Part shown: one piece after another, positions 15,727-47,599 of the stretch | Layout of the letters: each line of letters begins with the position of its first letter | Numbering within the stretch: the first letter of the stretch is position 1 | From: Psammoneis japonica | Lineage: Eukaryota | Direction: 5' to 3' | DNA: 64,000 bases | Assembly (NCBI GenBank): GCA_008632985.1 | Contig: QPGO01000036.1 | Location: forward strand, 248,001 to 312,000 | Program-made: the position numbers and the translations under genes | The notes under the pieces: model-generated | Told to the model about the DNA's origin: nothing | Database searches by the model: none | Seen by the model: the letters and a program-made list of their open reading frames with translations, nothing else

Positions 15727-15980
15727 TCCTTCACACGTCCTTTTCGATCCTCGGGATTTAACTTAGCAGGACAACAATAAAGTGCTATGTCGGCACTTAC
15801 TTCTACTTGTTTGCTCGCTCTTGTTGGTTATTGTGGCTCTGTCACTCTGTCTTCGTCCAGATGAGGTCTGTTTACCATGTTTACGCGCGAGCTCGTATTT
15901 TTGTGGGAAAATTCCGGATTTCTCGTACGGGATGCGCGCGCGCGCTCGCCAACAAAATATTTTCAGCGATGGGTCGAACC

Positions 15981-16514
15981 GAAAGACATCATAGAATGTT
16001 GTGTTAGCGCTAGTTCCGTGTATCTGCGTGTTAAGTAGACACACGGATTGGATAAAGAAGCTTCATCAATTAGAACTTTTATATGTATCCCTTCGTCCCA
16101 GATCAGCTCAAGACGTCCTCAATGGGAGGATGGAGCTGGCCCATCCCTCCACAAACACCAAGTGACCCCACTTGGGCCAGACCACTCATGCGGAACGATC
16201 ACCAACCCACCACGCACAGAGACCACCGACACCACACTGAGCAGACAACAAAAACCTGGCAACATGCTGATGACGGCACCAGAATCAATTCGATGTCACG
16301 CGCACAGCCCAAGAAAACTGCACACAACAACCACCCCTTGTTCGTGTCGCTGCATTGACTGTGCAATGTCCACTTTCTCACAGTGCTGCAGGTTGAACGG
16401 AAAGACATCATAGAATGTTGTGTTGGTGCCAGTTCATTCCGTGCATGCATCTGCATGTTGTGCAGACACAAGGATTGGATGAAGAAGCTTCATCCATTGG
16501 AACTTTTGCACGCA
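15981..16514 (+). repeat. Direct duplication of about 110 bp: copy A 15981-16087 (unmutated) and copy B 16400-16514 (TpA-hypermutated)
   Basis: Both copies begin gaaagacatcatagaatgttgtgtt. 10 of 11 TpA in copy A are TpG or CpA in copy B. Confidence 0.9.
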
Positions 16515-17060
16515 GGGTCATCTTTGCTCCCCACAACCGTTGAAGACACTCGTTCAAGACACTCGTTCATCACAAACTTTTTCATTCCGCACATTGTTCT
16601 TTCTGTTTATTTTCACACACATGTTGCACTTGCCATGTGTTTTTCACACAATTTCCTCAAGTGGCAACCCCGTGCATCATTCCACGTCCTTTTCACGCAG
16701 GATTTCTGATCAAAAATTTTTCTCCCCAATTCGTTCCTGCGGGACTTCATCAATCTTGTCAACCGCCCCCCACAAGACTCAACATGCGTTGATCAGGACA
16801 TGATGAAAATGTCGTTTCATGACCGCAAATCTGTGACCACACAAATCCACGACCACACAAACCATGACGCAAGAACAAACTCATCACCCTTTCATTCCCT
16901 GCAACGCCACAAAGACATTGTCCCTCTCGCGACATGCGCGGTGCCACATCCAGAACCTTCTGCCCAATGCCAGAATGACGCACATGTTGTTTTTTGTCTG
17001 CATCCCAATGGATGTTGGTGCAGCCAATCCAGTGCCTTTTTTGGGTGTGTGCTCTTCTTC

Positions 17061-18056
17061 TCACAATGCTCTTTGTCGAATGCAAGGCACGCACCAAATC
17101 AGACCATGATGACATGCCCAGAATGATGCGCTGCTTTTTTTGTCACTGAACAATCTCACCCCATCATTGTTGTCCCTCTTTTTGGTTCTTGGAGATGAAG
17201 GATGGGATTCTTTTGTGTCGTGCACAATCACAATCGTGGATTCAACCAACGCCGCCCCAATGGGGGGCATGTTGCACCCTTTGGAGGTGGTCGTGGCCAT
17301 GTGATGGTGGTGTGGCAGGCTGAGTTGGCCGCATTTTTGGCGACATGGTTGATGCTGGTGCTGCTGTGGGAGGCCGAGTGGGCCCCATTGGTGGCAGGGG
17401 AGGATGTGCCGGTGCTGTTGGTGATGGTGGCAGTGGCGTCGGCATTGCAGCCGGCAGCCGGCACGGAGGTGCTTCCAGTCATGTGCAGCAGGTCGCAACG
17501 CCGATGCTGCTGATGGTGGTGGTGGAGGCCGTGGCGGGGCCATGGCTTTGGCTGTGGTGGCGGCCCTTGTGTTGGATGTGTTGCTGGACATTTGGATGAC
17601 ACTGGCGGTGTGGGAGGCCGGACCGGTGGTGTGGGAGGCCGAGCAGGCCGCGTTGGCAGTGACACGCTTGGTGCTGGCGGTGTGGGAGGCCGAGTGGGCC
17701 ACATTGGCGGTGTTGTGCTTGATGCTGGTGGTGTGGGAGGCCAGAATGGTGGTGTGGAAGGTCAAGCAGGCTGTGTTGGAGGTGACATGCTTGATGCTGG
17801 TGGTGTGGGAGGCTGAGCAGGTGGAGCTGGTGGCGACAGCGTTGGTGATGGCGGTCGTGGCATCAGCATTGCAACTGGCAGCCGTCACAGCGGCAGTCAT
17901 GCAGCAGGTTGCAACGCCGATGCTGCTGATGGTGGCAGTGGACACCATCATCGGAGCCGCACTTTGGCCGTGGTGGTGGCCCTCGTGCAGGACATCCCTG
18001 GCCCATGCATTCACGTTGCGTGAAAGTGCAGCGTGGTTTTGTGCTGTCCTCGACAA
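17061..18056 (-). pseudogene. Degenerate repetitive ORF relic with internal tandem repeats (SHTTS/SHTAS units)
   Basis: Repeated ggtggtgtgggaggc units at about 17300-17830. No Tyr. Identity unknown. Confidence 0.35.
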
Positions 18057-18405
18057 TCAACCAAGCCAGTCATTTGACAACTGACCTGACCCAACTGGCC
18101 AAAGCAGGCTTTGATGATTGTGTCTGGCAGTTGAACAGGGTCAAACAACCTGAGGTGGCTTTCACAAGACAACCAGCAAGAGGATGCATTTTTGGTCGAG
18201 AAAATTGCCACGTTGCGGAAAAGTGCGGTGCGGTTTGCACTGGAATTAACACAGAATTCCACAGGGACAGTGTTTTGAGCGCCATTGTTTGAACATGGAC
18301 ATTCATGCCAAATGAGGCACTCGACATGCCAGCGCTAATTTTGCGCAGCTTTTTTTCATGCGATGACACAAATGTGTGTGCAATCCTGGCTGCCGCGCTT
18401 TCCTG

Positions 18406-18567
18406 CGCAAGGTCTGACGAAGACAAAGACTTGAGTGATGACAAAGTTGTGAGAGAGAGACCAAGGCAACGAGGTTGCTTTCAGCAAAGCCCATCACAAT
18501 GGCTCCTCTTGTGTCCAATGGGATCATCAATGCTGTGTGTCAGAAAAACAGGGTGTGCGACACTGCA
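18406..18567 (-). repeat. 3' LTR of the Gypsy element (contains the empty piggyBac target site at 18527-18530)
   Basis: Aligns to 23475-23597 plus 24772-24808 (aagacaaagacttgagtgatgacaaagttgtgagagagagacc...cagaaaaa..gggtg.gcgacactgca). Confidence 0.9.
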
Positions 18568-18699
18568 CTCTTCCCTTCCATGATTCAAAATGTGAGAATC
18601 ATTCGGGACTCCAAAACTTTTTAAAAATTTCAACTCAAATTCCATGAGAGGAAACAAGGGAAACCCAAGTGTTGGGGAAAAAACCCTCAACCTCAAATT

Positions 18700-21600
18700 C
18701 GATGCGCGGGACGACGCGCCAAATGTTGAGTTGTTCCACCACATGAGGCACCCGTTGAACTGCAACAGTGCCATTGACGTGCACCTGAACAATGGGACAA
18801 GGGCCATGTGCCTGAGGTGCAAGCTTGGCAGGATCAACTGTCTTGACAAGTGCTTGATCGATGTTCTTGAAAAGCGGCGAGATCCACTGGAACTGGCAGG
18901 TCTAAAATCATGTCACGGTGGAACACCACAGCACCGGGTGAAACCTTGAGAGCCCAGGATGCCACACATTGCATGGCATGCATTGCCGTTGCCAAAGCAT
19001 TGTCCACTGGTTGATTGGCTTGTCCAACATTCTGTGGAGGATAAAGATGAAGCAAAGCATGCAAGACGTCACCAACAGTTTGATGCGCACGTTTGCATGC
19101 CGCATTGGCTTGTGGATTTCTGGATGGCAGCACATCTTCCACTCCAGCCTGTTGCAACAACAGTTGAAAATGTTCTCCAATAAATTCTCTGCCATTGTCA
19201 TGAATGCAGCGGTTGGGATGAAGACAACGAGACAACCAACAATTCTGAAATTGCTGGGAAATGTGTTCGGAGGTTTTGTTGTCCACACAGATGAGTTCCG
19301 TGACATTCGAAACTGCGCCAATGCAAGTCAAAGCGTTGAACTCAATCTCCTGGCCCTGAACATCAATCTTCCAGGGACCAATGAGGTCAACTGCAACTTC
19401 ATTCCATGGCAACAAAGATGCTTCGTGCTCAGGCAGTTCCCCATGTCTGGGACCCAAAGTTTTCAAACGTTGACAATCAGTGCAACAAAATTCTTTGCAG
19501 GTTCGACAAAGGACAGGATGACAAAAATGCATGCCAATGGTTGAATGCATGCGATGCATTCCTGCATGTCCCAATGTCCTGTGATGCCATTGAATCATGT
19601 CAGGCAATGAAGCAGCAGGGATGCAGATCTTCCAGTCTGTTGAAGGAGCATTGGGATGAGCTCGGTGACAAATCACAGGACATTGGCTCACACATTCAAT
19701 CACGAATCGTTCCGGATGTTGTTGTCACATGTCACTCAATTCCACATCAATGAATTGGTGCTCTTGAATTCGTTGCACAGTTGTTGGATTTTGCATTTCA
19801 TCAAGCGAAGGATGGTTCAAAAACGATTCACACAGTTCAGGATCATCAACAAAAGAGGAGCAGAATTGAGAGGGTTCTTCTCGACAGCAAGTGAAACACA
19901 ACACATGCTCTGGGTTGTCAAGTTCTTCTTCATGAGGTGGCATTGCAGTGTTGATTGCTTTGAAATCTGTCAGCTTGCCTTCATTTGGAGTGCACTTCCC
20001 TTCCGTTTGAGGATCCATGCATGTGGCAATTGCAAAAAGCAGTCTGCCAATGGGCTGTCCTTGCCGTCAACATGCTCAAAGGTTGGAGCAAAGTCTTCCA
20101 AGAAGAGCCTCCACCTGAGTGCTTGTTGAGAATTGAGCGCATGAAAGGTGAGATTTTTATGATCAGCAAAAACAGCACAATCAGCTCCCAATGACATGGA
20201 ACGGAATTCTTTGAAACACATGGCCACCGCGAGAAGTTCTTTCTTGATGGTTGAACAATTCTGCTGTGCTGAACTGAGCTTCCGCGACCAACATGCTGCT
20301 GGCTTTTGATCTTGCATGATTGCTGCACCCATTTGACAGTCGGAGGAATCGGTGCAAACATGGAAGGGCTTGTTGTGATTCGGGTGGACCCAAAGGGCAT
20401 CATCCATCATCAAAGTCTTCACATCTTTAAAGGCTTTCTGACACTGTGGAGTCCGCTCCAATTTGCTCTTGCCGGTCAACTTAGCAAGTGGAGCAAGTGC
20501 ATGAGAGTGACGGGGCCACACATTCTGACAGCAGGTTGCCGCACTGACAAAAGATTGTAGTTGTGTCACATTCTGAGGAGGTTGCATCCGCAATGCAGCA
20601 TCAACCTTTTTCTTCCAAGGTCGAACTCCTGCAGGTGTGAGCCAATGGCCCAGAAAATCTGTCTCTTGGATGCACCACTCACATTTGAGTGGATTGACTT
20701 TGAGATTGTTTTCTTCCAGCCTGGACAATGACTTGTCAAGTCAACGCATGTGAGCATCAAACGAATCATCAAATTGAGCAACATCATCAATGTGGGCCTC
20801 GACATTGAGTCCGTTTGCCACTTTTTCAATGACAGCCTGAGCAACATCTGGTGAGGTCTTAAATCCCATGGCCAGCCTGCAAAGCTGGAATTTTCCAAAT
20901 GGAGTGACAATTGCACAAAGGTCCTTGAAGTCATCGTCCAGCTCAATGTGACAGCAAAACATGGTGAGGTCCAACTTGGTCAAAAATTTGCACCCTGATC
21001 GTCGGTGTAAAACATCCTGAACAACCTTGTCCAACTCTCAAAAGTCAGATGCCCATCTTGCTCGTTCATCTTTCTTGGGAGTTGCAAAAGTTCCTGCTGC
21101 CCATTCCGTTGGTCCCACTGGTTCTAGCACACCAGTGTCGCAAAGATGTTGCAGTTCCTTCTTGAAAACTGCCTCGTCTTGTTTGGACACTTTGTGGGCT
21201 TTGGAATGAAAGGGAGTGGCGTTGGCATCAACTTCCAAATGTGCAGTTTTGTGTGGATGTTTGCCGAGAGTCCCATCAGAAAGAGTTTCATGATTCTCAA
21301 GTGCGACTTGAAGTTCATCGCGTTGCTCCTGCATCAAATGAGTTTGTGATTGTGCCACTTTTTCGGTCGACACTTTTTCATGCTTTGCATCCAACATGAA
21401 GGATTGACTTGACAATTCTTCATTGGTTTTGTCCTCCTTGTTGTCGTCCAACACATCCAACCAATTCTGCACTTGGATCCAATGATTGGATTGCTTCATC
21501 GGGATCGTGGTGTCCAACCATTTCATGGCTGCAAACCTGAAATCCAATGCCACACCAGCTTCAGCTGGGAAGTCTTGACCCAACATCACATCACACTTGC

Positions 21601-23240
21601 ACTGTGAATCAAACACTTGAGCCACAATTCCACTTTGTGATGACATGTCGAGAGGATTCATGTCATCCGGCCACCATCTGAAAGCTCAGTTGTCCCTCAT
21701 CATTCACAGTTGGATTGGCTCCCTTGGGCAAAACTCGAGAATGCACAAGTGTGTCAGCACCTCCTGAATCTGATGATGTGCGCAACACTCGCTTGCTCTC
21801 TTGATTTTGCATTGTGCGCGCTGCCATCAATGTTGTGGGCACCACACTCAATGGCTTGGGAGTCACAGTTTTTGGGGTTGGCGCAGCATGCTCCAAGGCG
21901 CTGCCCATTTCTTCTTCATTCACAGCACAGGATTCCATCAGGTCCCCCACACTTTCATCAACATTGAAACACATGCGTTCATCACAACCACACAAAACAT
22001 GAAAAGATTGAGCGAAACGCTCTGACTCGGGCACTTCCGTCCCTTGTCAATTGTGCCAGCTGCGTTGGCCTTGAGGAAAACAACCACCTTGGTCGCATCC
22101 ATTTCCACCTCGCGTCTCACGAGGCCCTCCTTGATCGAAATGGTGCAACTCCATTTGCCAGTCACCAGGAGGAGCTGTTCCAGCTAGATTTCCATGGCCT
22201 TGGGCATCACCGTTGGCTTGGGTGCCATTTTGATGTTGACAATGAGATCCTCCTCCTTGGGAATTTTGTGATCCTTGGCAGCTGCCATGTCCTCAGCCAC
22301 CACAATTGCCTTGACTGCCACAGCCACCACGTCCTTGACCTTGGAAGTTGCCACGACCTCCTCGGCCTTGCGAACCTCTGCCTTGGAAGTTTCCATGGCC
22401 TCCACCTCGACCTCCACGGTCTGTCCTTGGTCAACAGTTTTGGTTGTCTGGACTCAAAATGCAATCCTTCCATTTGTGGTCATGATTGGCATGTGCTGGG
22501 CACCCAGACTCTGGATCAGCTCAAGTGTTGTTCCCTCGACTTCACCCAGAAGCTTGAGAGGATGAAGCATTGCTCTTTTGCTTCTTGCTCTGCTTTTTGT
22601 TGCTGCTCTTGTCAGCAAAGGATTTCTCATTGTTCACGCAGCTGACAATCTCGGCAAGACTGTCGTCAGCTGTTGATCGTCCTGCTCGAGTGTGCATCTC
22701 ATGCCACGGACGAGGAAAGCTGTTGAAGATCATCTTCTTCTTCTGAGCGTCATTGGCTTGAGGAGCATTTCCTGGTGACTTGTTAGAACAGCAAACCAAG
22801 GCCTCCATGTGATCAGCATGTGCCTGCACTTCAGATTTGAACAGTTTCTTCAGGGTCAGCAAACATTCAATCACAGTGTCGCGCGCCTCATTGTCACAAT
22901 GAGACAGGTGAAAACCACTCATCTCTTGATCAATTGTCAGCATCAGCAGTGGTGTCAGTCAAATTTGCCCATTTGACCTCAGCAGCATTGGTTGGTGCTT
23001 CTTTGAAATTGTCAAACAATTCTTTGCCAGCAGCAAACTCCAATTTCACGGCAATCTTACGAAAATGATCCTCAACAAACAACGAAGCTTCAGCGCCATG
23101 GGTGCCATCAAAATGCGGACACTTTCGAGCACGCGCACTGCCATCATCATGCCACTGACTCAATTTCACGTCCTCCAAATCAGAATGCTCAAATTTTGCC
23201 TCACAGTTGACACAGGGTTCTTTTAACGAATCACCCATCA
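18700..23240 (-). pseudogene. Gypsy gag-pol, fragmented by stops and frameshifts
   Basis: Protease VLRTSSDSGG (LLDSG), RT TPFGKF...MG...EAHIDD (YIDD), RNase H VCTDSSDCQMGA...SRKLSSAQQNC...KELL...DHKNL, integrase PWNEVAVDLIGPW...IHDNG.EF...NPQANA. Confidence 0.92.
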
Positions 23241-23474
23241 TGCAATGTGGAGCACAATTGCGAAACAGTCCTCTCCAGGGACTCCACCTTTGACTCCAAA
23301 TGATGCACTTGGCTTGCCAAATTCTGTTCGTGTTGTCTGTGTTGTTGAACTTGTTTCTGGTGGTCAATCACCCAAGCTGCTGCTCTTGCTTGTAATTCTC
23401 TTTTCTCATGTTTGGTCAATCTGTTTGCATTGCCCCCAGTCTCCATCCAGCTCTTGAGTCGACTGCAATTGCAG

Positions 23475-24808
23475 TGCAAGGTCCAACAAGACAAAGACTT
23501 GAGTGATGACAAAGTTGTGAGAGAGAGACCAGGCAACAAGGTTGCTTTCAGTGAAGCCCGTTGCAACGGCTCCCATTGCATCCAATGGGATCATTGACCC
23601 TTCAACCACCAGGGGGGAGCAAATCTCCGCAGGTGGAGATTTGCTCTGCTTGAGGATGTGTGCCGTGTCATGCACTTTTGCAACAACACAATGAACACAG
23701 TAAAACATGTGATGTCATGTGCAATCTGCGTAAAGTGTGCCACGTGCATTTGCTTGTGTGTTGGGAGCAAATCTCCACCGGCGGAGATTTGCTCCCAGGG
23801 TGTGGCATTGTTGCTCCATTTGTGACAGCAACTCATGACAAACTTCATTGTTGAAAGTTGAGATTTAGTTCCTCTTCATTCACAGATGAAGCTTGCAAAA
23901 AACCCGGCGTTGAAAGTTGACATTGAACTTTCTAAATTGCAAAAAGTGTGCCTCCAGATTTTCGGCGAATGCGCGCTCCAGAACAAAATCGCGCGAACAA
24001 AATGTTGTGTCAACAGGAATCATTCGGGTCCTGAGAGTCATCCCGTAGAAATTTTGTGGGAGAGCACTAAAAACAATTGTTGTCAGTCTGTCCATCCGTC
24101 CACACACGAATGTCAACTTCTTGGGAAATCGATTGAAATGCCATCTGATTGACGGCACAGTGTTTTGACTCACACAGTGATGAAGGCCAGCGCCGTCAAT
24201 CAGATGCAGCAGCATTTCAGCTCAGTTCCCGAAAAGTTGTTGGCTCTGATCACTCTCTAGCATGACATCATTTGCACTTCTGCACGCAATGGGAACATTT
24301 CGAAAATGACCCGTGACGTAAAAAGCACAAAACAATTGTGGACGCCTGTGGAATCTACACGTTTTTGTGCTGAAGCTGTTGTGTTCACACAATTTGTGCA
24401 AAAACGGACTTGACTGTCATCGGGTCAGGTGCATTTTTGCAAATGCATTGAAGAAAAATGCACCTGATCAGAAAACAGTCAAGTCCATTTTTTGCAAAGT
24501 TAAAATTCACTGAGGACAGACAGACAGACTTTTCAACAATTGTCTTGGTGCTGTTCTGCACATTTCTGCGCAAATGACTCTACAGCGCAAAAGATTGCCG
24601 CTGTTTTGTGTTTTCCTTGTGTAAAATGTCAATTGTGACCCACGTGACATTTTCGAATGATTCCTGTTGCACCGGCACCGTGTGTCTGAAATTGCTTCAT
24701 TTGCCACATTTGTGGCGTGAGCGGGCAAATCTCCACCCGTGGTGATGGAGATTTGCTCAATGGTTGAAGGGCCAATGCCATCAGAAAAATGGGGTGCGCG
24801 ACACTGCA
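23475..24808 (-). repeat. 5' LTR of the Gypsy element, split by an insertion (23475-23597 and 24772-24808)
   Basis: Colinear with the 3' LTR on both sides of the 1174-bp insert. Confidence 0.88.
23598..24771. mobile_element. Non-autonomous piggyBac-like DNA transposon (MITE-like) nested in the 5' LTR
   Basis: TIRs cccttcaacca...tggttgaaggg. Subterminal palindromes gcaaatctcc...ggagatttgctc at about 23617, 23765 and 24725. Flanks ttga / ccaa and empty site tcaa all fit a mutated TTAA target. No transposase is visible. Confidence 0.8.
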
Positions 24809-25853
24809 TCCTACGACGGTGTGGAGAATGACCAGAAAATGACTGTGACCCAAAAATCGCACACTGTTGCACCAAAGTGCAGCGTGATGCGTGACGTGGA
24901 CCAGGGACATGGTGGTGGACATTTGGATGACGGCGATGGTTGTGACCCTGCCATGCACAATCCACAGTGCTGCATGTTTAGCACAAAAACTGTGGAAATG
25001 TCCACAGCCGGTCAAATGCCAAATTTCGGCATTTCCTGGAAAGCCGTGCTTGTCTCCCTTGAGCAGCGCAATTTTGGAGAAAAATGGCGGTTTGTCGAAT
25101 GCAACAACTGAGCCGAACCCGATGATTGGCTTTTGAAGGTTGAAATGTGCAGTTCACACACAGGTCCAACAGCCCTGATGGGGGGCTGGACACACTCACA
25201 AGAGTGCTTGGGGGTGCTCAGAGGCAACGCAAAACAACACAGGCGAAGTGCGAGAAAATTGCAAAATCACGAGCTAATTGAAACCAGGCCTGCGGGGAGC
25301 ATTGACCACTTGTCTTTCTTTGTGGGTGTGGGTGCATGTGTGCCGTTGCATGCTGCATTGCCTGCATGCACGCAGGGCCCTGCCGCCGGGGCCGGTGTTG
25401 TGGCGGCTGAGTGGCGTGGCCACCGCACCGGTGATGTGGATGACCGTCACATTTGATGTCTCATGCCATTTTTGGGGCTGCAGCGAGGTGCACGGACACT
25501 CTTTTTTTTCCAATTTATCGCCACAACAGTGCATCACACAAACTCACTTGTTGTTTGACATGTTTTCCCCAACATGACTTTTTCGTGTAGAATTCACGAC
25601 AAATTGTCTTTGTGTGCAACTGAGTGCATTTTTGAACATGCCACGCCGGCAATCCCAATTTTTCAGAACTTTCGAGCTCTCCTGAAAAACCGTGCCACGC
25701 ACCCATCATGGGGAATTTGTCGATTTTTTAGGATGTCCCCACAACCTCTCATGTCCTCAATGACAATTCCAAGAATCCGAAGAATTCATCTGCACTGAAC
25801 AACCCATGCCCTTTCAAAATCCGAGGGACACACTTTCAAATTCAGATGGACAA

Positions 25854-25935
25854 CCCAACTGCCCGACTGCCCAACTGCCCGACTGCCCCACTGCCCGACT
25901 GCCCAACTGCCCGACCCCCCGACTGCCCGACTGCC
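25854..25935 (+). repeat. 8-bp microsatellite (gcccgact/gcccaact)n
   Basis: About ten units that vary mainly by CG versus CA. Confidence 0.9.
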
Positions 25936-26044
25936 GGACCGACACGAAAAAGTCTGCAATCATCAACCACTGAGTGGTCAATGAAAATGCCTCATGGGCA
26001 CTTTCAATCGTGTGGAAAAATGACCCCGGGACACATTGAAATTT

Positions 26045-26220
26045 GCGTGCGTGGAATCACACTGGAACACTCGGCAATGGCAATGACCACATGGATTTGG
26101 TGTCTTTTGTACGTGCGTGAAGTCACACTGGGACATTTGGCACTGTCACATGCACTTGTAGATTTGGTGTCTTTTGCACTTGCGTGAAGTCACACTGGGA
26201 CATTGGGTGCTGTCACATGC
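26045..26220 (+). repeat. Degenerate tandem repeat, about 70-bp unit, 2.5 copies
   Basis: gcgtgaagtcacactgggacat...gatttggtgtcttttg repeated. Copies differ by gtac/gcac and ca/tg swaps. Confidence 0.75.
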
Positions 26221-26506
26221 CCCAGCAGAATTGGCGCACAGTTCTACGATGCGCAGAAAGCAACCAGAACACTGGGCACTTCCAAAATCACCAGTGGAAT
26301 TGGCACAAGTTGCACATGTGGAAGAAGACACTAGCTGGCTGCTCTCTAGCTGGCTGGAGAGGACATTCTGTGAGCGTTGCCTTTGTGTGTGGATTTTGCA
26401 CTCACTTTTTTCAAACACAGGCCAAACAGAATGATCATCATCAGCCAACAACGGCAAGCAACTGCATTGCTCAATCCACTTGTAAACGTGCACAACAAGC
26501 AATCCG

Positions 26507-27928
26507 ATGAGTTCTCCGCATTACAGTCAGAAGAAGCATCGAGTTGATGACATTTTCAGCCCTGTTTGCAGCCCCCGCATCATGCAAACAACGACTCCAG
26601 CGCGTTTTGCTAACAACTGCATGCCGACTGGCACTGCTGCTGGTGCGATTGGATCTTTCCCAGCATCGCTTTCCTCCAATCACACTGCTTTCAATGCTTC
26701 ATCTATTTTTGGTCCTTCACCTGTTTGCGGCACTCCTGCCGCCACACCCCCCACCAACGTCTGTGTTTTAGCTCGCAGCAACGTGAACCAAGAACCTCCC
26801 GAAGACATGGAGCTGGACGACGATGACACGCTGCTCGATGCATTGGCAGAAAGCTTTGCACCTGCCAAAGGAACAATTTATGATGTCAGGAATCCCCATG
26901 ATGCAATCCCGCCATTGTTCCGAAGTCTGCCAAGTTCTCACAGTGTCATCGTGGAAGAATCACAGGAAAAGTTGGAAAAGATCGAAAAGCTGCTAGCGTC
27001 AAAGAAGGAAATGGAAGAATCCAGGAAGAAGCAGCGAGAAAACACATGTGAGGAAAAGTGCAGACTTGAAGATGAACCAGCCAAAGCTGAAGCCACATTC
27101 GAGAAAAAGAAGAAAGAGTTCAAAAAAGCAGAATCTCGGCTCAACAGGGAAACAAAGCAAACAAACGAATGTGAAAGGGAGACTGCGGAACTCAGCATGG
27201 CACGCACATGATGTGATCTTTTGTCTGTCTTAAAATGTCCAATCTAACATAAATTGTTTGTCCTCGTTTATGTGGAACAGCAACGTGAGGAAGAGAGGGA
27301 AGTGATCCGCCTGGCAAAAGCCTTCGCTCGCGAATCGAACCGACCTCGTCGTTGGATGGCTGAGGCTACGGTTGACATGAACCGTCTTCGCCAAATGTTG
27401 TGGTCCTCTTTTAATGTCAAAGGCACAAGGGAGCAGCTTGAAGAGGACGAGTTTTCTGGTAGAAGGCTTCAGATGATCTTGCGCATTTGTCGGATTTTCG
27501 GTTTGGATCACAACGGAGGGTGGAGAGATCAATGGAAGAATCCTCCTCATTCTCTCTTTCTACGACACATGCCATCGGCCCCCAGCATGCCTGACAATTC
27601 TGGTGCAACAAAGAAAAAACTGGCAGAGCAAGTTGGAGATGTGCCATTGATGCCGCTGCGAGAAAGAGACATTCTGAAGGAGCCGGTCTCGGCGTCGACC
27701 TCGACCTCAACGTCTGCAACTCAAGGAAACTCTGCATTGGCTACAACCTCAGCTTCAGGCCAAGACAACTCCTCCGACCAACACAAGGACATGTGTTCTG
27801 GCTTGTCGCTAGAAGAATTGGAAGCGGCGTTGAAGGTGTGCTGCAAGGGAGGCATCCCCACAGCGGATGTCGAGCGCACTGTCGAGCTTGCAAGAAAAAC
27901 TCGGCCGACCGACCTTAGAGTTATTTGA
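26507..27928 (+). pseudogene. Unidentified coiled-coil protein gene or TE ORF, only partly mutated
   Basis: ORFs 26507-27211 and 27254-27928 read like real protein (EEK-rich coil, GGWRDQWKNPP) with a probable decayed intron between them. Confidence 0.45.
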
Positions 27929-28399
27929 CTCGTCTGTTCTGTGTTGGTTTGTTCGTTCGTTCGTTTGTTCCATCTCCACCAAAAAGACCAAAAGACTGCC
28001 ATGTGCCGGCACAACCTTCGTTGGGTGTGTTGATTCTTAAATGGTTCAACATGGTCCAAAATCAAACACGATCGAGGCATTGGCTGCTTCTTCTGCAGTT
28101 TCTAAAACAGTGCGTGGATTTCTTTGATTCAACCTTTCCTCAATTCGACAATGTCACAACCCAAACCGAGTGCAACCCAAACTGGCACTGCATTCTCTCA
28201 CTGACCGTTGGCCCATGAAGAAAAAGACGGACACTTGGAAGCAATCACACGCCAGTTTGTCCTCCAATGACATCTTGGCGCTGCAATGCTCTGTACAGCA
28301 GAGAAGGAAAAGAACCCATTTGTTAGATCCCGACGAGACTTTGATTTTGCTGTGCCAATGAATGGCGTCATCTCATGGCGGACATTCTCTCATCATTCT

Positions 28400-30600
28400 T
28401 TTCATTCCTCCATCATGTCGATTTCGTCATCTTCATCTTGTTCATCGTTCCCCAACTTGAACGTTGACGATTGTTGGTTTTCACCTGTGGCATGTGTCAT
28501 GACTTGGTCCCAGAAATGTGCTGCACCTTTGCTCCAAAACTTTGTGTGCTGTGCCGGCAGTTTCACAGGATTGAAAGACGAAAGTCGAGAACATCCGTTT
28601 CAAAGCCATTCCCGTCCATGCGAGTTCACACTTGTTGTCCGGATTAAACTTGCGACTTGTCGTTTCACCATCTTCATTGTCTTTGTCTTGTTCCTCCAGC
28701 TGTTCGAGCCCTTCTCCAGTCCAATTCATTTGGACCATCATGAGTCGAGTGCATCGCTTGATGCTTTGGGCCCACCCTCGCAGATGGCACATGCCAGTGA
28801 TGGGCTTTTGCATTCCAAGACTTCACCTGTGATGTAGTTTTGCTGAGCATTCAAACCAACCTTGGTGTGATGGCATGTGTGACCCATGTCTTTGACGCAA
28901 AAAATCGCCACAGATGCCGACTGGGACGCATCTTCTGTGAGCTTGTTAAATTTCTTTTCCCTTCGTTGTTCCTTGGTGAGTTTATGTTCCCAATTGCTCT
29001 GCATGTGTGCCCGTTGTCTCGCTTGGATTTGCTCCACGACCTTTTGTTCCGTTTGACTTGGATCTAACACTGCTTGGTCTCCCAGAACTTGGGTGAAATT
29101 CTTGAGAGTCAAGCGAGGCTCTGGCGCTGGAATGAGTCCTGCCGCTTGCGCATCTTGAATCTTACGCTGCTTCTCCTCCCGTCGCTTTTTGCGATGTCAC
29201 TTCAGTTCCCGCTTGGTCAGGTGCAGGGTCAGCTGTTTTGCTGGGCCATCCACAGCACCTGGTGGCTTGATGGGTGCAATGTGTTGAACCAAGGTGCATG
29301 TCTTCGAGTGCGACAGTGACGCCTGATCCCAACACTGCTTGTCCAGTTGCTGTGGCTTGTTTTCTTCTACTTTTGACTTGTCTTCGTGTTCTGCATTGTT
29401 GCCAGCGTCTGGTTGTTGCAATTGTGCTTGCGTCTGCTTCGACAAGGCTGCTCCTTCTTGCGCAGCTACGGCCTTTTTCAATCTGCTGGGCAAGAGCTCC
29501 ATGTCCCACCACTCCATCACTGGTGGCATGTGGGTCTTGTCTGAAGCTTCTGCCCGGGGCGGCAAGGATGTGTCTTGCTGCGTCCCTGTCGTTCCACACA
29601 CACTGGCCATGCCCGTTGATTCCACATGCATTCCTGCTTTGCATCCGCTGACAAATCCAGATTGAGTTGCGTTCGCAGCACGCTGTCGCTTCCGCTCTGC
29701 CAATTCAACAAAGGCACCGGGCTCCACAAACACCATGGCCTTGTGCTGCTTCCGTGGTTTGCTTGCGTGCACCAGTCTTTCATTGACGTCTTCCTGCGGA
29801 GTGCCACTTGTCGTTGCCAATTTCTTTTGATTCTTTGCCGATTTAGTCGCTTGTTTCTCTTCCTCTTCTTCCTCTTGATGAGCCAAGCAAGGATTGGATG
29901 GTTTTTCCTTTTCTGTGGCTTCAATGTTGGCTTGGTGGTGGCAAAAGTTGGACCTGCAGTCGACATGTCTAGCTCACAGTGCTTGGCTCATTTCACTGGT
30001 GGCTGAGCAACATCATCATTGGTGTGCTTGGGCGGAGCCATTCCGGCTGACTGACCCTTTGAGCTGCCAATTTAGCCATGATGCTTTCTTGCAGTGCCAG
30101 AGCTTTGGTCTTTGGGTCTGCCGCAGCCGCAGCAGTTTTAGAAGCATGCACCTCATCATTTGCATTTTCACCGGGTGACGACACTTTCGTGATTGAGGGC
30201 AAAAAAGAAGAGAACGTGGAAGATCTCTTCTTGTCGACCCAATTCAGCCAGGGAAGGGGCTCGCATCCATCATTCACCTGTTTTTCCTTGTTCTTTCGCA
30301 GCCGCAGCAGTTTTAGAAGCATGCACCTCATTGTTTGCATTTTCACCAGGTGATGACACTTTCGTGATTGAGGGCAAAACAGAAGAGAACGTGGAAGATC
30401 TCTTCTTGTCGACCCAATTCGGCCAGGGAAGGGGCTCGCATCCATCACTCACCTGTTTTTCCTCGTTCTTTGGTGTTTTGAACTGTCTTGTACATTGAGT
30501 CTTGGGATCCTTCCTCTTGAGATGACGAGATGGTTGTGCCATCCTTGGCTTTCCTCTTTTTTACTTGAGTCTGGTCCCATGTCCCATCTCGAATGCAGGA
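28400..30600 (-). pseudogene. PRP3: Inactivated copy of U4/U6 snRNP splicing factor Prp3
   Basis: Motifs PPVMEWWD, QHIAPIKPP, LTLHLTKRELK*HRKKRREEKQ...AAGLIPAPEPRLTLKNF, AVLDPSQTEQKV, KLTKEQRREKK, LNAQQN, EGGPK, IKRCTRLM, NKCELAWTG. In-frame TGA at 29197-29199 plus frameshifts. Confidence 0.85.
30121..30465. repeat. Tandem duplication of about 176 bp in the 5' part of the PRP3 relic
   Basis: cgcagccgcagcagttttagaagcatgcacctcat...gggaaggggctcgcatccatca occurs twice. Confidence 0.9.
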
Positions 30601-30899
30601 AATCTCTGAAAAGCCATCAGAGCAGGTTCTTGAATTTTCCCGACCCCTCCTCCCCACCCCAAACTCCCCACGGCCAGATGCAGGGTCAGTGCATTGTGCA
30701 TTCTTCAGATTTGTCAGGTCCTGAAGATTTCAAACGACATTGTCATCACCTGACATTTTCAGAATTTTGTGAAAGCATCATTCGCATCACATGTAAGACT
30801 TGCTGTGCTTGAATGCCACACTGTTGCTTGATTGCATGCAGTCAACATGCGGTCTGTCAATCGCAGCCAAAATTTAAAAATTGCACTGGAAGTGTGGGT

Positions 30900-32860
30900 T
30901 AGCCGGCACTGGTGTTGCTGGGCAAAGGTGTGACAGCACTTAAAAACCAGGTTTGGTTTTTTTCTGTTCCCCAGCCATGTCTTTCACACTGCCAAGAGAA
31001 GCTGTTGTGTGGCAAATTGCAGCCATTTTGGCTGTTGGCAGCATTCACAAACTTTGTCTTTTGTGTCAAGAACATTTCCCCCTTTTTGAAGAAGAAGGCC
31101 AAAAGGCTTGTGGCACATTTTTTGGAAAGGAAAGATGAGCAAGAAGGGCACTCCAGACTTCCCAAAGCACCTGTGGAAAGGCTAGAAGGACACTTGCAAG
31201 TGTTTTGAAAAGAAGGAAAACATTGACAATGAGGCTTCAGCAACGTTGAGTTTGTCAACATTTTTCATGCTCCTTCTGGTGTGAAACTGTGCTGCCCTGA
31301 TTCTGCAGTCAAAGATGGCAAGGATGGTTTGCTTCAATGGTCTTGTGAAAGACCAGGTCTTGTTTGGGGTGCAAAGGCTGCTGAGAATGAAAGAGATCAC
31401 TCCATCCATTCGCGCAAGGAGACAAACAAGTCAGAGACAAAGAAGCAGGTGAAGGACAAGAAGGAGCTGGTGCCCGCAGACCACAAGCCATCAGCAGAGA
31501 AAAAAGCTTTGCCAGAAGGGAAAATTGGAGTGCTGTGTGCCATGGCTGAGGAAAGCGATGATGTGGTGCAGGTTGGGTGCATGAAAAAACAGCATTCTCG
31601 TTTTCTTGTTGAGCCAGGCAAAAGGGCGGTCTCAGAGCACAATGAACCATTGCACAAACACTTGGATCATGAAGTTTGACATGAAGTCACTGATCACTGC
31701 AAATGTGAGGAAGGAGCAGCCTCAGCACTCAAGCATGGAAATGAAAATTTGAGGGTGACAAAGGTTGGGAAAACTGAAGAAGCGAGTTCATTGAGCTCAA
31801 GCAGCTCCATTCCCACGCTTCTGTTTCCATCTCACACACTCATCTCAGTCTTTCAACTTGGATGTGGCTCATGTTCAGACAATGGGGGAGGTGATTGGCC
31901 TTGGTTGTGGGTTGCACAATGTGCGCAAGAATCAAGGGGCAGCCGCACTTGACAGGCAGATGGGCACCTGTTTGACAAAGGTTGATGGTTTCACTTGTCA
32001 GCCACAAAGTGACCTCCTTGTTGCAGGTCCTGGTGACAAGGCAAAGTTCCAACACGGTCGCAGCAAGCACTGTCAAGATGTGCCAGCCTGGGCTGCAGCA
32101 GCAACTCTCCAAGCTGATTTGACAAATTTGGCCACTGGCAAAGCTGCGACATTTGACCGACAGCTTGTCAAAGTTTTGGCCAAGGTCATGCACTGTGAAC
32201 CAACCAAAGTCTGTCTCAGGGGCGTGCTGACCATGGCAGCTGTTTGCAGCATCAGTTTCTTCAGCTCAGACTGTGCAAATGTGCAAACGACACATTTGAG
32301 AAGGTGACAAGGAGATGATGGCCCAAGATGAAAAAGAAGGAAAGCTGCCAAGCAAGCAAGAGAAATGCCATCTGTTGGCGCATGGTTTGACAAATTCAGA
32401 CAGATGGGTGTCCCTGCTGGCTGCTTCTGTGAGTTCATTGGCAACATCAATTTGCGCCAATTTGGAGAGCATGTGCAGTTGCACTTGCCACTCCCAGAAT
32501 TGGGCAAGGAGGCAGCCAGGATCATTGCTGACCACATGACCTTGCCACTGGCGGCAGCAGGCAATGTCTGACACCATGCCACCAGCGGCTCTTCAGTTCT
32601 TGAAGAAGATGGACTTGTGTGCTGCATCATCCCCAAAAAGGGTGCAGCACTTGTGCAGGGCAAGGCAGGCAGATCAAATGGGAGGAGCAGCTTTTGAAGT
32701 GCAACAGTGGCTTGAAGGCAATTGAGAACAACAACAAGAGAGCCAAGTGGGCTGAGCGAGATCAGCGCAGCAGCTGGCGAGGCATTGGACAAATCAAATC
32801 ATCACTTCTGGCATTCCTGTCATCAATTTTCTCTGACGCTGTTTTCATGCTTTTGCCCTG
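30900..32860 (+). pseudogene. Degraded unidentified coding relic
   Basis: Successive protein-like plus-strand ORF pieces (31281-31679, 31858-32307, 32365-32571) with no Tyr. I recognise no family. Confidence 0.35.
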
Positions 32861-33756
32861 ATGGTGCAAATGTCAATCAAGCTCCAAGAACCTGAGCAAC
32901 AAAAATCAACACAGTGTTTCTGCACATTGTGGGAATGTGCAGAGCCCCCACGAAGCTGTTTTCCCGCCAAGGTCAGGCCGATTTCAAGCTCATCTCAAAA
33001 CACAGCAGGTGACGTGCCGCACAACACAGCCACTGTCAAATCTCTTGGTGCATCTTGAGCCTCTCTCTGGGGGATCTCAGTTCTCCGTGTCCATGCCAGC
33101 ATTGTCTTTGTTTGTTTCGTGCTTCTGCTTCTGGATGTTTCTCAACTCTTGCCCACGTGCACACTCGATGCATGCAGCAGCTGTTGCGGCAGTCAACAGG
33201 AATCATTTGAAAATGCCGCATCAGTCATGATTGACATTTTGCACAAAGAAAAATGCAAAATCATGCAGAAATGCACACACAATGTGATTCAAGACAGTGG
33301 CTGAAATTCTGTGCAATGACTTGGAGAGCTGCGACCACTGTTCCTCCCACTCAGCTGTGAGAACGGCGAGCATGTTTGTCCGCGTGAAAATGTTCGGGTG
33401 TGCTAAATCAAACAGCAACCGGGAATTAGGAACTTTCTGTTCTCCTCCAATTTTTGAATGCATCACACCATCACTGCCACCCGAGAATAAAACCCCGGTT
33501 GTTGTTGTTTGTATTGTCATTGTTTCTGAATGTTTGCAAATCACGTGGTCAGTGCCCCCCCCCCCGAAGTGGGGTACCTGGTGTCGTACGCCGTTGATGC
33601 ACTGCGCACTGCGCCGGCACGGTGCTGGCGGCTGCTGGCTGCGCTGCGTTGCAATTTGCTACGGTACCGGTATTCCCAAGCCTATTTTCTAGCGTCCTCC
33701 TCTTTGTATCTTTATTCATACGCCATCAGGAAGCCTACGCTCTGCCTGAGACGGAA

Positions 33757-41062: not shown

Positions 41063-43462
41063 TCAAGTTCGAATTGGAAGCTGCGTAGAAGTTCTGCTGA
41101 CGAGCTTTAAAAACGATTGTTCGATGTCGTCTGCGTTCAAAAATGTGACGTGAGACCCCAAGGGATTGTACGTCCGAGCTGCGCCAACAAACTCCCATTC
41201 ACGCGGAAGGAGCTCTTCACCGTGAAGTTCAGTGATCATGGACGAGAAGACATTTCCTGGACCTGCCTTGCAAATGTCGGCAAACAATATTCCATCATAA
41301 GTACCAATGATTTCCCTCAATCCAAACGGAGCGCTGCTCAGATATGGACAGTCAACCACGTCCAACTCTGACTCATTCTTGAGGTTTCCCTTGATACAGA
41401 GTTGTCGGCGTGCTTGCAGCGACGCGACGACGCCATTTCCATAGCTCACAATGGCCCACTTGCCATCCACGCCATAACGGCAAATATCATTGAAGCCCAT
41501 CATAGCAGCATCGGCATCACTCTTTTCGGGGTACGGGCTTTCCCAGCCACGATCTCTGTCGTGTAGATGGCGCAAATTCAAAAGATGCGTACAATCTACC
41601 AGCATGACCACTCGTCCGTTTTTGGCTTGGGCAATGGCATTTCGAAAGCCTCTAACATAGTCCGCTCCATTACTGTAGCAGACAACATCCACACCCGGCG
41701 GCATGTGAGGGAGGGCGTTGTGCGTGTGAAAGTTCCCCCCAAACAGCCCACGGCCGAACCCTTGCAACCTGATCACCATGCCATTGTGTCTTTGTCCATT
41801 TGTCAGCCAGTTCATCATTGCAATTTCGTAGAACATATCCGCACCGCAGTCTAAATACTTTGCATAGGGGATTTCAACTATTGGGAGTAGGCCCACCTGT
41901 GAAAAACCCATGGCCGCTCCCAACAAGGTGGTTTCGTCCGGCGGAAAATCAAGAATCCTACCAGGAAATCTCTCTGGAAGGCCATCAGTAACAAGATAGT
42001 ATCCGCCATGCTCAACGTCTTCTCCCAGATACACTACATCATCAAAGTCCTCCAGCGTCTCGGCAATGACTCTCGTCATGTGCTTTCTCATAATCTCTGT
42101 TTTGCCTGCTGATTTCCCTACAACTATCTCCTTGCAACGTACATCCTTTGGCAACGGAGGAACTTGGATAAGCGGCTGCGAAACCCTTTCCATCATGTCT
42201 TGTTTTGTCACCTTGTCTTCCACTGCTGCCTTGTTAAAAGCTGTACGGGCAAGGTCTTGGATTTCAAGAAACCTGTCGAGTATTTCAGCATACGTAGCTA
42301 CCGAGGACAACGTTTCAACAGCCTGTACAGATGCACTCGCCAAGACGTCTGTGTCCGTCATGCCTTGGATAACGTCTGCCCCCAGGTATGCATGCTGTCG
42401 GTCAGTAGCAGCATGGCCAAATCGACGAACAATATCACGGTAAATGACAACTGCCGGCGACATCTTGGTGCGCGCGTATTCCAGTGCTTGTATCGTTTGA
42501 TCGTAAACATCGAGCATGTCATTACCGTTGGCGCTGAATCTCGGGAGCAAGGTGTCGTTGTCGGGAAACATGGTGTCGATATATCCTTCGGTCTTGTAAG
42601 AGATGGATAAGCCATTATCTGATATTCCAAACACCACTGGACATTTGATGTGCTTGTGTCGAGCATGTCTTGCAAGGTGGTAGGAGGACAAAAAGTGATG
42701 ATTGTGCACGGAACCGTCACCTACGGTAACAAAGGACACTGAGCGCTTCTTTTCTTTCTGCTTCCGCATCGAAAAACCGAGCGCTCGCCCAACTGCTGAT
42801 GGACACTGCGATGCCAAAGTACTGGTAACAACGTAATCACAATTGGTAGCAGCACCGCCCGAGCCAATGGCGCAGTGTACGCCACCTGTAACTGGATCGT
42901 GACGACTTACAGTGTAACCCCGGGCACGGTCCAGCAAGATTTGTTCCATCGACATGCCTCTCAAAAGTTGACACCCAATGTTGATCCCAAGGTGACGATA
43001 ATGCAATGCGATCGTATCGTTTGGACCCAGTGCGGGTGCGGCACCAGCAAGCACCTCTTCACCGCAAGGGCCTATCGTGTAATACCCCAGTCCCACAAGT
43101 GCTGCGATCCGAGCTTCTACATGAAGCGCAAACGTGGCCATTGCTGCATCCAGAGTTAGCCGCACTTGATCCGGAGTCATTAGGTTCTTGTACCCTTTGC
43201 GTGGAGGGTCGATCGGAGATACCGCAATGATTTCGCTGCCTTTTTCAACGTTGATAGCTTTGGCCTTCAAAAACTTGATGAGATTGGCTCGAGCTCGCAC
43301 TTCGGGTAGACCTTCAATTTCAGAACGATATTTATGGCGAAGTCCGTCCATAAAGTGCTCATCGTTACTCAGTGCAGGATGGGATGAGCTGAACCAACAT
43401 CGTGAAAACCAACGCCCACGCAATCGCGTCCTCTTCGCCGTCGTTAGGAAGCTTGGTAGCAT
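41063..43462 (-). CDS. ThDP-dependent 2-oxoacid dehydrogenase E1, fused alpha+beta (BCKDH-like)
   Basis: ALHYRH, GDG...DNG.SIS ThDP motif, RRFGHAATD, LGEDV..GGYY, PPDE, EIPYAKY, FHTHN. Start taken at MLPSFLTT (mitochondrial-like leader). Confidence 0.88.
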   Translation of the reverse strand: MLPSFLTTAKRTRLRGRWFSRCWFSSSHPALSNDEHFMDGLRHKYRSEIEGLPEVRARANLIKFLKAKAINVEKGSEIIAVSPIDPPRKGYKNLMTPDQVRLTLDAAMATFALHVEARIAALVGLGYYTIGPCGEEVLAGAAPALGPNDTIALHYRHLGINIGCQLLRGMSMEQILLDRARGYTVSRHDPVTGGVHCAIGSGGAATNCDYVVTSTLASQCPSAVGRALGFSMRKQKEKKRSVSFVTVGDGSVHNHHFLSSYHLARHARHKHIKCPVVFGISDNGLSISYKTEGYIDTMFPDNDTLLPRFSANGNDMLDVYDQTIQALEYARTKMSPAVVIYRDIVRRFGHAATDRQHAYLGADVIQGMTDTDVLASASVQAVETLSSVATYAEILDRFLEIQDLARTAFNKAAVEDKVTKQDMMERVSQPLIQVPPLPKDVRCKEIVVGKSAGKTEIMRKHMTRVIAETLEDFDDVVYLGEDVEHGGYYLVTDGLPERFPGRILDFPPDETTLLGAAMGFSQVGLLPIVEIPYAKYLDCGADMFYEIAMMNWLTNGQRHNGMVIRLQGFGRGLFGGNFHTHNALPHMPPGVDVVCYSNGADYVRGFRNAIAQAKNGRVVMLVDCTHLLNLRHLHDRDRGWESPYPEKSDADAAMMGFNDICRYGVDGKWAIVSYGNGVVASLQARRQLCIKGNLKNESELDVVDCPYLSSAPFGLREIIGTYDGILFADICKAGPGNVFSSMITELHGEELLPREWEFVGAARTYNPLGSHVTFLNADDIEQSFLKLVSRTSTQLPIRT

Positions 43463-46400: not shown

Positions 46401-46627
46401 AGCCACAGCACCAACTGCAGGTGCTGCTCTGGCAAGAGAAGACAGAAGACAAAAGCAAAAACAGCTGCTGCTGGCTGCACAACACTGAGCAGTGCTCTCC
46501 AGACATGCAACACATGCTGGTGAGTGAAAATCACAAAGAGTGCTCAGCCCCTCTTGCCAGTGATGGCATGGTTGTGTCTCTTGCCCATCAATGTGCATGA
46601 GGGGTGGCACAGCTGCAACATGCTGTG

Positions 46628-47365: not shown

Positions 47366-47599
47366 TGATGTTCTCAAGCAGCAGCACACCAAAACCCCAT
47401 TCACATGATCCTGAGTCAGTGCCTTGAAGACACACATTTCTTTCATGTGGCAATTTTGACAACAAAGGTGCAAAGCCAGTTTTTTCTAAATCCCCACACA
47501 GAAAGGTGTTTGAGTGATCAGCACAGCAGGTGTGCATGCTCACAAGGGTGCGGAGAGAGCAAGTGATGAGAAGCATCCTTTCTGGGTGTTCTTTTCCTG

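Follow-up and report, generated by a model that had tools for sequence, protein, structure and literature searches.

Region-limited loss of TpA and CpG around a degraded Ty3/gypsy retrotransposon of the diatom Psammoneis japonica

The two long terminal repeats (LTRs) of a retrotransposon are copied from a single template, so that any difference between them must have arisen after synthesis. What kind of mutation, then, makes the LTRs of one element disagree at pyrimidine-purine (Y-R) steps and at hardly anything else? The question is raised by a 64,000-nucleotide stretch of DNA from the diatom Psammoneis japonica (positions 248,001 to 312,000 of contig QPGO01000036.1, assembly GCA_008632985.1; hereafter the window), which carries on the minus strand of positions 18401-24813 a single degraded Ty3/gypsy LTR retrotransposon, recognised from its direct repeats, target site duplication (TSD), polypurine tract and order of pol domains. 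As argued below, this is very probably a dead element lying within a 17-kb block of repeats and mobile DNA that has come under region-limited transition mutagenesis at self-complementary Y-R dinucleotides. The changes run from TA and CG to TG and CA, use both strands, keep to sharply limited regions and took place after the insertion.

Differences between the two LTRs

A first-pass annotation of the sequence had described, at 18401..24813, an LTR pair of about 160 bp with a 5-bp TSD (tccTA versus tccTG), about seven TG/CA double swaps, several CG>TG/CA changes and little else. The pair was recovered with LTRs of 162 and 156 bp and TSD copies TCCTG and TCCTA, for which a match at four of five bases between two fixed 5-mers would arise by chance with a probability of ~0.016 by simple arithmetic. 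That annotation had mentioned neither the nested element that splits the right LTR nor the minus-strand orientation. The class of swaps proved to be real, although their number is six rather than seven: when 18 random transitions were placed on the left LTR in 20,000 simulation runs, the swaps averaged 0.41 with a maximum of 4, and six were never reached. Besides the swaps, five sites pair a CG with a TG or CA, among them the first base of the LTR (C versus T), a further CG of the left LTR coincides with a 1-bp indel, and one CG is common to both copies. The little else consists of two adjacent substitutions (TC versus CA) and three small indels of 1, 1 and 4 bp. TA dinucleotides are absent from the left LTR (where the observed/expected ratio, o/e, of CG is 0.43) and, as counted by eye, from the right one. 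Altogether, the raw divergence of ~19 in 156 columns (~12%) is reduced outside Y-R steps to only 2 columns (~1%), and the warning that dating by LTR divergence is invalid here was thus well founded.

Such a pattern would follow from the symmetry of the two dinucleotides involved. TpA and CpG read alike on both strands, and a hit on one strand would give TG where a hit on the other would give CA. Where an ancestral TA or CG was hit independently in both LTRs, half of the doubly hit sites would end up as swaps, and hits in a single copy would appear as CG versus TG/CA or, as in the TSD, as TA versus TG.

Extent, direction and sequence context of the changes

Over the whole window, the o/e of TA is 0.38 and that of CG 0.70, with CA and TG both at 1.42. 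Two hypermutated blocks, A and B, could be delimited (Table 1), throughout which CA and TG reach o/e values of 1.6-1.9. The other 34.9 kb of the window, occupied by ordinary genes, give an o/e of 0.62 for TA and 0.98 for CG, and the genes flanking the blocks 0.41-0.62 and 0.88-1.02, respectively. No difference between the inside and the outside of the blocks is seen in base composition, in the other twelve dinucleotides or in the total for the four Y-R steps (0.242-0.244), the GC content is 0.49-0.50 in the blocks as in the rest of the window, and AA, AT and TT are not depleted (AA o/e 1.16-1.29). Since the Y-R share stays constant as TA and CG go down and TG and CA go up, TA and CG have been converted into TG and CA.

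The affected regions end abruptly, and their borders are sharper than 300 bp. Normal spacing of TA ends before block A at 16086 and is found again from 33404, and block B starts within ~30-150 bp of the upstream end of a long frame at 41063-43642. Genes beside the blocks keep intact frames of up to 895 amino acids (aa), and the neighbouring GDP-mannose 3,5-epimerase gene shows 83-91% identity to diatom proteins, with no identical protein on record. A 117-bp duplicate, with one copy just outside block A and the other just inside it, is mutated in the inner copy only, which locates the left border of the block within ~300 bp. The two copies are separated by seven TA>TG/CA and four CG>TG/CA changes, the outside copy has TA or CG at all 11 of these sites, and one TA is retained in both. 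Up to these borders the signature extends over a nested DNA-type element, tandem repeats, a copy of a host gene and flanking sequence. Necessarily younger than the retrotransposon that it interrupts, the nested element is less mutated than its host (TA o/e 0.14 and CG 0.70, versus 0.05 and 0.46 in the gypsy interior), indicating that the process went on over time. In the repeat families of the blocks, 53 Y-R columns are variable, of which 28 contain TG and CA only, 20 also a copy with CG and five also a copy with TA.

The direction of the changes was read from pol by mapping 120 homologues with tblastn and retaining the 221 codons at which at least 15 homologues agreed at a level of at least 60%. 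These codons are unchanged in 147 cases and changed in 74, 57 of them by a single step. The single-step changes are TA>TG at 17 sites, TA>CA at 7, CG>CA at 9 and CG>TG at one, accompanied by 8 other transitions and 15 transversions. None of the 13 conserved tyrosines is kept (replaced by 8 Cys, 3 His, 1 Leu and 1 Trp), and five of the 11 conserved arginines are now Gln or His. Every single-step Ile>Val and Met>Val change is preceded by T, and most Val>Ala changes are GTA>GCA. The element retains a single Tyr in 869 residues of pol, where the median of the homologues is 4.0%, and its Cys and His together make up 9.7%, against a median of 5.1%. With all 13 conserved tyrosines gone, this copy could have provided neither working enzymes nor its own last transposition, and the changes must therefore be later than the insertion.

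Equivalent changes were found in a pseudogene of the splicing factor PRP3 located in block A, for which 150 homologues defined 166 conserved positions, 32 of them changed. None of its three conserved tyrosines survives (2 Cys, 1 Phe), five of 14 conserved arginines have become His, Cys, Gln or a stop, and the changes include three TA>TG, three TA>CA, four CG>CA and two CG>TG. An intact PRP3 copy should exist elsewhere in the genome. In all, transitions from TA to TG or CA number 24 in pol, 6 in the PRP3 copy and 7 in the border duplicate, and those from CG to TG or CA 10, 6 and 4, the latter in line with the CG o/e of 0.54 and 0.11 of blocks A and B. In the reverse direction, only one of 44 conserved Cys, His, Gln and Trp residues of pol and PRP3 has changed, to Arg.

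These data bear out each part of what had been concluded from the LTR pair in the initial annotation. TA and CG are the ancestral states, as indicated by that single change to Arg or Tyr among 44 residues. Mutation followed integration, given the differing LTRs, the changed TSD base, the lost pol tyrosines and the signature shared with the nested element, the pseudogene and the flanks. Both strands were affected, as seen in the four classes of pol changes. With respect to strand, sense-purine changes predominate in the element, and the ratio is 13:3 at the codons for Tyr and Arg, where ascertainment has no effect. Elsewhere, part of the excess may reflect ascertainment, on the reasoning that changes at NNT-ANN and NNC-GNN codon junctions are visible in one direction only. 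Polarised pol sites 3-6 bp apart are often opposite in strand, and a count by hand gave 18 runs over 34 sites, where 17.9 are expected. Clusters coordinated by strand, of the type left by a processive single-strand deaminase, were discarded on this same random expectation, and a consistent sense-strand bias, which is present in the element, because it is reversed for Arg in related proteins.

Seven of the 120 homologous gypsy proteins, coming from NCBI, ENA, JGI and Logan, resemble the element in having 0-0.7% Tyr and 7.5-10.9% Cys plus His. At the columns where Tyr is conserved, these seven relatives show 6 Tyr, 31 Cys and 20 His, versus 859 Tyr, 9 Cys and 12 His in the other 113 homologues. 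Their arginines have been replaced 15 times by Cys or Trp and five times by His or Gln, which is opposite to the asymmetry of the element. The JGI and Logan contigs that hold such relatives are presumably short-read assemblies.

The loss of TpA depends on the neighbouring bases. The tetranucleotides ATAT and ATAC/GTAT, present 99 and 220 times in the unaffected 34.9 kb, do not occur at all in either block, and GTAC is nearly extinct. On the other hand, TTAA survives at ~0.5-0.85 of its normal density, and 22 of the 27 TA left in block B belong to Y-TA-A. These counts point to a TpA process with an extended context preference, in which R-TA-Y would be favoured and Y-TA-A spared. CpG survives best as GCGC (0.40 in block B) and worst beside A or T (0.05 for TCGA).

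The two dinucleotides can also be lost separately. Between 26.5 and 30 kb of the window, CG is near normal and TA strongly reduced, and three of the seven tyrosine-free relatives retain nearly all of their arginines, which implies that TpA can be lost without CpG. Four related metagenome gypsy loci (L049, L072, L052 and L078) have a CG o/e of 0.07-0.30 with TA at 0.62-0.88. Being poor in CpG with normal TA, they indicate that CpG decay can proceed without the TpA process in other hosts.

Origin of the mutations

The observations are best accounted for by two processes that work on either strand of the chromosomal DNA. One of them, TpA>TpG/CpA (that is, A:T>G:C at TpA), would be fast and close to saturation, preferring R-TA-Y and sparing Y-TA-A, and the other, CpG>TpG/CpA, would be slower, with deamination of methylated cytosine as its simplest cause. 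For TpA, the candidates are an ADAT2/TadA-type DNA adenine deaminase, which has been proposed for the protist Bigelowiella, or a route through a modified thymine, and for CpG a plausible route is deamination of 5-methylcytosine (5mC). The process might serve as a defence against mobile DNA, and its target might be a chromatin domain rather than sequence homology.

Several observations weigh against this account and delimit it. Within the LTRs, TA never stands opposite TG or CA; the direct evidence there concerns CpG, and a TA ancestry of the swaps is suggested by the surrounding sequence and by a model. That all half-changed sites are CG is expected if TA decays faster than CG; by arithmetic, the interior of the element has lost ~92% of its expected TA and ~54% of its expected CG. 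The model started from an ancestral LTR whose TA and CG were as dense as in the unaffected parts of the window, left the hit probabilities of each copy free and was conditioned on the observed counts. Three to four of the six swaps would most likely derive from TA, and none of them in 1.3% of cases, figures that depend on the assumed ancestral composition. At position 18406, the outermost dinucleotide of the 3′ LTR is CG, in contrast to the canonical TG (sense-strand CA) of the 5′ LTR, a rare change in the reverse direction. In pol, arginine has changed five times to Gln or His and never to Cys or Trp, and tyrosine eight times to Cys and three times to His, an unexplained hint of local strand asymmetry. 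A self-search found no second copy of the element or of its LTR within the window, nor did tblastn find another gypsy RT (reverse transcriptase) there. Moreover, in a metagenome scan based on alignment of the RNase H region, none of the best 78 DNA loci was depleted in TA (lowest o/e 0.47). The process is consequently not shared by this clade of elements as a whole, and the evidence at the DNA level comes from this window alone.

A precedent for the loss of TpA is found in the chlorarachniophyte Bigelowiella natans, a rhizarian with integrated giant-virus and virophage DNA. In a mutation accumulation experiment read by Illumina sequencing, two integrated viral regions underwent ~1000x hypermutation, nearly all of it TpA>TpG/CpA (Mettrop et al. 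2026, bioRxiv 10.64898/2026.01.13.699255). The long-term trace consists of TpA-poor, CpA+TpG-rich clusters with an enrichment of RT and DDE-transposase domains, the authors suggest an ADAT2-type DNA adenine deaminase and state the 5′-U preference of ADAR, and neither CpG nor diatoms are mentioned (bioRxiv 10.64898/2026.01.13.699255). The diatom blocks share with that portrait the confinement of transitions to TpA, giving TpG or CpA according to strand, the chromosomal site of action, the foreign or mobile nature of the regions and the TpA-poor, CpA+TpG-rich clusters. They differ in that the host is a stramenopile instead of a rhizarian, in that mutation was observed directly in accumulation lines of Bigelowiella, where TpA is modestly depleted (Rho TpA 0.45 in the viral region), and is read here from the sequence, with a depletion close to saturation (o/e 0.04-0.08), and in the loss of CpG that accompanies, in this case, the loss of TpA. 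The extended context, fastest at R-TA-Y and sparing Y-TA-A, is a feature visible here. The TpA half of the signature is the same kind of process as that of Bigelowiella, in a different major lineage and much nearer saturation. In the literature searched, which largely lacked subscription journals, there was no report of a TpA/CpG-loss signature in a diatom. With the blocks, a kind of targeted hypermutation that was described only very recently is recorded anew, in a diatom, and it extends far beyond the LTR pair from which it was noticed.

With regard to the CpG half, diatom transposons are CpG-methylated by DNMT5a (Hoguin et al. 2023, PMC9998398). Deamination of methylated CpG would fit this half, as it produces CG>TG/CA on both strands, more strongly in older sequence and more weakly for CG flanked by G or C. 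Its pace is nevertheless very fast here, with at least 5-6 changes at CG sites of the LTR pair versus two other substitutions, and it leaves the loss of TpA unexplained. Decay of methylated CpG alone, from which all swaps and half-changed sites would derive with no process directed at TpA, is extremely unlikely. In its favour, the half-changed LTR sites are all CG versus TG/CA (five, plus one shared CG), a repeat family of six copies has eight columns with TG and CA of which four keep a copy with CG and none a copy with TA, and the four metagenome loci cited above lost CpG alone. Against it stand the TA o/e of 0.04-0.08 in the blocks versus 0.62 outside, the loss of all 16 conserved tyrosines of pol and PRP3, 13 of them to Cys or His, the TA context of the changes from Ile or Met to Val and from Val to Ala, the seven TA>TG/CA that separate the copies of the border duplicate, the stretch from 26.5 to 30 kb with nearly normal CG and strongly reduced TA, and the model probability of ~1.3% for six swaps all derived from CpG. 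For the block as a whole, this reading is already contradicted. Pre-integration editing of the ADAR or APOBEC type, acting on the retroelement RNA or cDNA, is hardly more credible. Knisbacher and Levanon reportedly described in 2015 the editing of retroelements by APOBEC3 and ADAR, which likewise leaves deaminase-type transitions recorded in integrated LTR elements. TA>TG suits the 5′-U preference of ADAR, and the sense-purine excess (17 TA>TG versus 7 TA>CA, 9 CG>CA versus one CG>TG) has the appearance of editing, even if part of it can be put down to ascertainment at codon junctions. However, editing of this type precedes integration, acts on one strand, leaves the LTRs alike and spares the host flank. 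Here the LTRs come from one template, and no earlier change can make them differ at 11 Y-R sites; the other strand is changed too; and the signature is carried by the nested DNA element, the tandem repeats, the host pseudogene, the TSD base and the flanks. The first-pass annotation had argued against such editing from the LTRs and the TSD, and the presence of the signature on both strands and in non-retroelement DNA contradicts it further.

It is also improbable that the signature is an artefact of assembly or base calling, in which modified bases (5mC at CpG, a modified T or A at TpA) would be miscalled in a strand-specific manner and the consensus would fall randomly on TG or CA. Miscalling of this kind would account for the near-total absence of TA and CG and for sharp, chromatin-like borders. 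Yet the intact frames of up to 895 aa in the adjoining genes speak for an accurate assembly, polarised sites only 3-6 bp apart go to opposite strands (18 runs over 34 sites, 17.9 expected), tyrosine-free relatives come from four independent sources, JGI and Logan contigs among them, the younger nested element is less affected than its host, and TpA mutation arose de novo in the Illumina data of Bigelowiella. A homology-triggered process resembling repeat-induced point mutation (RIP), which would act on duplicated DNA rather than on a chromatin domain, is unlikely as well. In fungi such as Neurospora, RIP changes C to T mainly at CpA, enriches TpA, lowers GC and mutates both copies of a duplicate. 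The blocks resemble its products in being restricted to transitions at specific dinucleotides on both strands, in the chromosomal inactivation of mobile or duplicated DNA and in the invalidated dating, and the targets include repeats and, necessarily, a second copy of the essential PRP3. RID-like DNMT4 enzymes of unknown function are found in many diatoms (PMC9998398) and might carry out such a process. But RIP creates TpA, and here TpA is destroyed, with CpA and TpG enriched and GC unchanged. Of the two 117-bp copies, which lie ~420 bp apart, the inner one alone is mutated and the outside one is spared, a weak test as so short a duplicate possibly falls under a length threshold. A large part of block A is unduplicated within the window, and the target in Bigelowiella was single-copy. 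Two further candidates were rejected. Errors of the polymerase eta type (WA>WG) after CpG repair do not agree with an AA that is not depleted (o/e 1.16-1.29), nor with TpA loss where CpG is nearly intact, and GC-biased gene conversion can yield neither CG>TG/CA nor the dinucleotide specificity.

Returning to the two processes at TpA and CpG, chromosomal removal of TpA from mobile DNA had previously been shown in a single 2026 preprint and for one chlorarachniophyte. The near-saturated trace in a diatom suggests that the TpA process is widespread among SAR protists and directed against transposons, not solely against viral inserts; in this window it has affected, besides the LTR retrotransposon, a nested DNA element, satellites and the copy of a gene. 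A broader proposal, which we put forward tentatively and regard as possible rather than probable, is that a dedicated genome-defence mutator of diatoms singles out islands of mobile and repeated DNA and converts their TpA and CpG to TpG and CpA. It would consist of one chromatin-guided deaminase system or of two coupled ones (for adenine and for cytosine or 5mC), favour R-TA-Y and spare Y-TA-A, kill host genes trapped in such islands, the PRP3 copy being one, and represent a counterpart of fungal RIP that is shared with Bigelowiella and ancient in SAR. Sharply bounded natural targets with a measurable sequence context should be useful for identifying the enzyme. In practical terms, LTR-divergence dating is wrong in such genomes (~12% raw versus ~1% outside Y-R steps), and transposon proteins free of tyrosine escape domain searches, block B being left without any recognisable domain.

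Anatomy of the element and other features of the window

Table 1. Coordinates of the blocks, the retrotransposon and associated features (positions in the window)
Feature	Position	Strand	Details
117-bp duplicate, unmutated copy just outside block A	15972-16080	+	duplicate comparison
Block A, contains the element	16090-33400 (~17 kb)		TA o/e 0.08, CG 0.54, CA 1.67, TG 1.62
117-bp duplicate, mutated copy just inside block A	16391-16507	+	duplicate comparison
Left TSD copy, TCCTG	18401-18405		versus TCCTA: 4/5 bases equal, mismatch TG versus TA
Left LTR, 162 bp (3′ LTR in the element's orientation)	18406-18567	-	sense start TGCAGTGTC, sense end CCTTGCG
Polypurine tract adjoining the 3′ LTR	18568-18579	-	GGAAGGGAAGAG (sense); direct sequence reading
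Integrase open reading frame (ORF), weak, degraded	18834-19724	-	Pfam Integrase_H2C2 E 3e-4, rve E 1.8e-3, both under the Pfam cut-off
RNase H part of pol	19970-20740	-	Pfam RT_RNaseH_2 E 1e-23, RT_RNaseH E 3e-21
Reverse transcriptase fragment, in-frame stops on either side	20741-21037	-	RVT_1 E 6e-6, 26.6 bits (cut-off 29.6)
Upstream pol and gag-like region	21038-23474	-	no Pfam family; homologue tblastn
Right LTR (5′ LTR), first part, 120 bp	23475-23594	-	repeat alignment
Nested 1,178-bp non-coding element	23595-24772		terminal inverted repeat CCCTTCAACCA; splits the right LTR
5′ LTR, second part, 36 bp	24773-24808	-	repeat alignment; right LTR total 156 bp
Right TSD copy, TCCTA	24809-24813		direct sequence reading
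PRP3-like splicing-factor pseudogene in block A	28405-29973	-	Pfam PRP3 domain; four in-frame TGA stops
Block B, rich in tandem repeats	43670-54980 (~11.1 kb)		TA o/e 0.04 (27 TA), CG o/e 0.11 (73 CG)

The polypurine tract abuts the left LTR, which makes this the 3′ LTR of a minus-strand element and fixes both the LTR boundary and the orientation. The LTRs have the usual TG...CA ends (TGCAGT...CCTTGCA on the sense strand), with the terminus of the 3′ copy now being CG. On the minus strand, the order of pol is RT, RNase H and, lastly, integrase, which is the Ty3/gypsy arrangement. The RNase H region has 223 homologues, the best named ones belonging to the diatoms Cylindrotheca, Ditylum and Nitzschia (47-62% identity). 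The scores of RT and integrase lie below the Pfam cut-offs as a result of decay, and the integrase ORF has one Tyr in its 296 aa. Matches to the homologues by tblastn extend to 21301, with two more at 22728-23241, and the coding frames are interrupted by in-frame TGA stops plus at least one frameshift. No protease or gag family was detected by Pfam in the ORFs of the element.

The nested element is bounded by terminal inverted repeats of 11 bp (CCCTTCAACCA) and has additional internal palindromes, and it showed no coding domain and no Pfam match. Lengthening the inverted repeats by a single base at either end (23593-23596 and 24771-24774) leaves TG and CA as the flanks, where the intact LTR reads CA. 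From these letters, the flanks could be a former TA target duplication, as in Tc1/mariner-like elements, with all three copies changed later, in which case the ancestry of one LTR site might be assignable.

With respect to coding capacity, none of the 45 ORFs of at least 110 aa in block B has a credible Pfam domain. A Pfam search of 70 ORFs of at least 110 aa from both blocks gave two sub-threshold matches only, at chance level, and in 12 longer ORFs the PRP3 domain was the only one found. The loss of TAA and TAG stops leaves TGA alone and creates long spurious ORFs on both strands; long overlapping ORFs of this sort, for example at 17061-18084, 50056-50828 and 51441-52493, are not evidence of genes. 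The plus-strand ORFs at 26486-27928, near the PRP3 copy, resemble real charged proteins and yet are poor in TA. A tRNA scan for candidate boundary elements found no tRNA genes. The tandem repeats of block B have periods of ~186, 252 and 374 bp and are accompanied by a 1.1-kb pair. To the right of the retrotransposon, a microsatellite at 25841-25951 is made of ~13 copies of the 8-bp unit (G/A)ACTGCCC.

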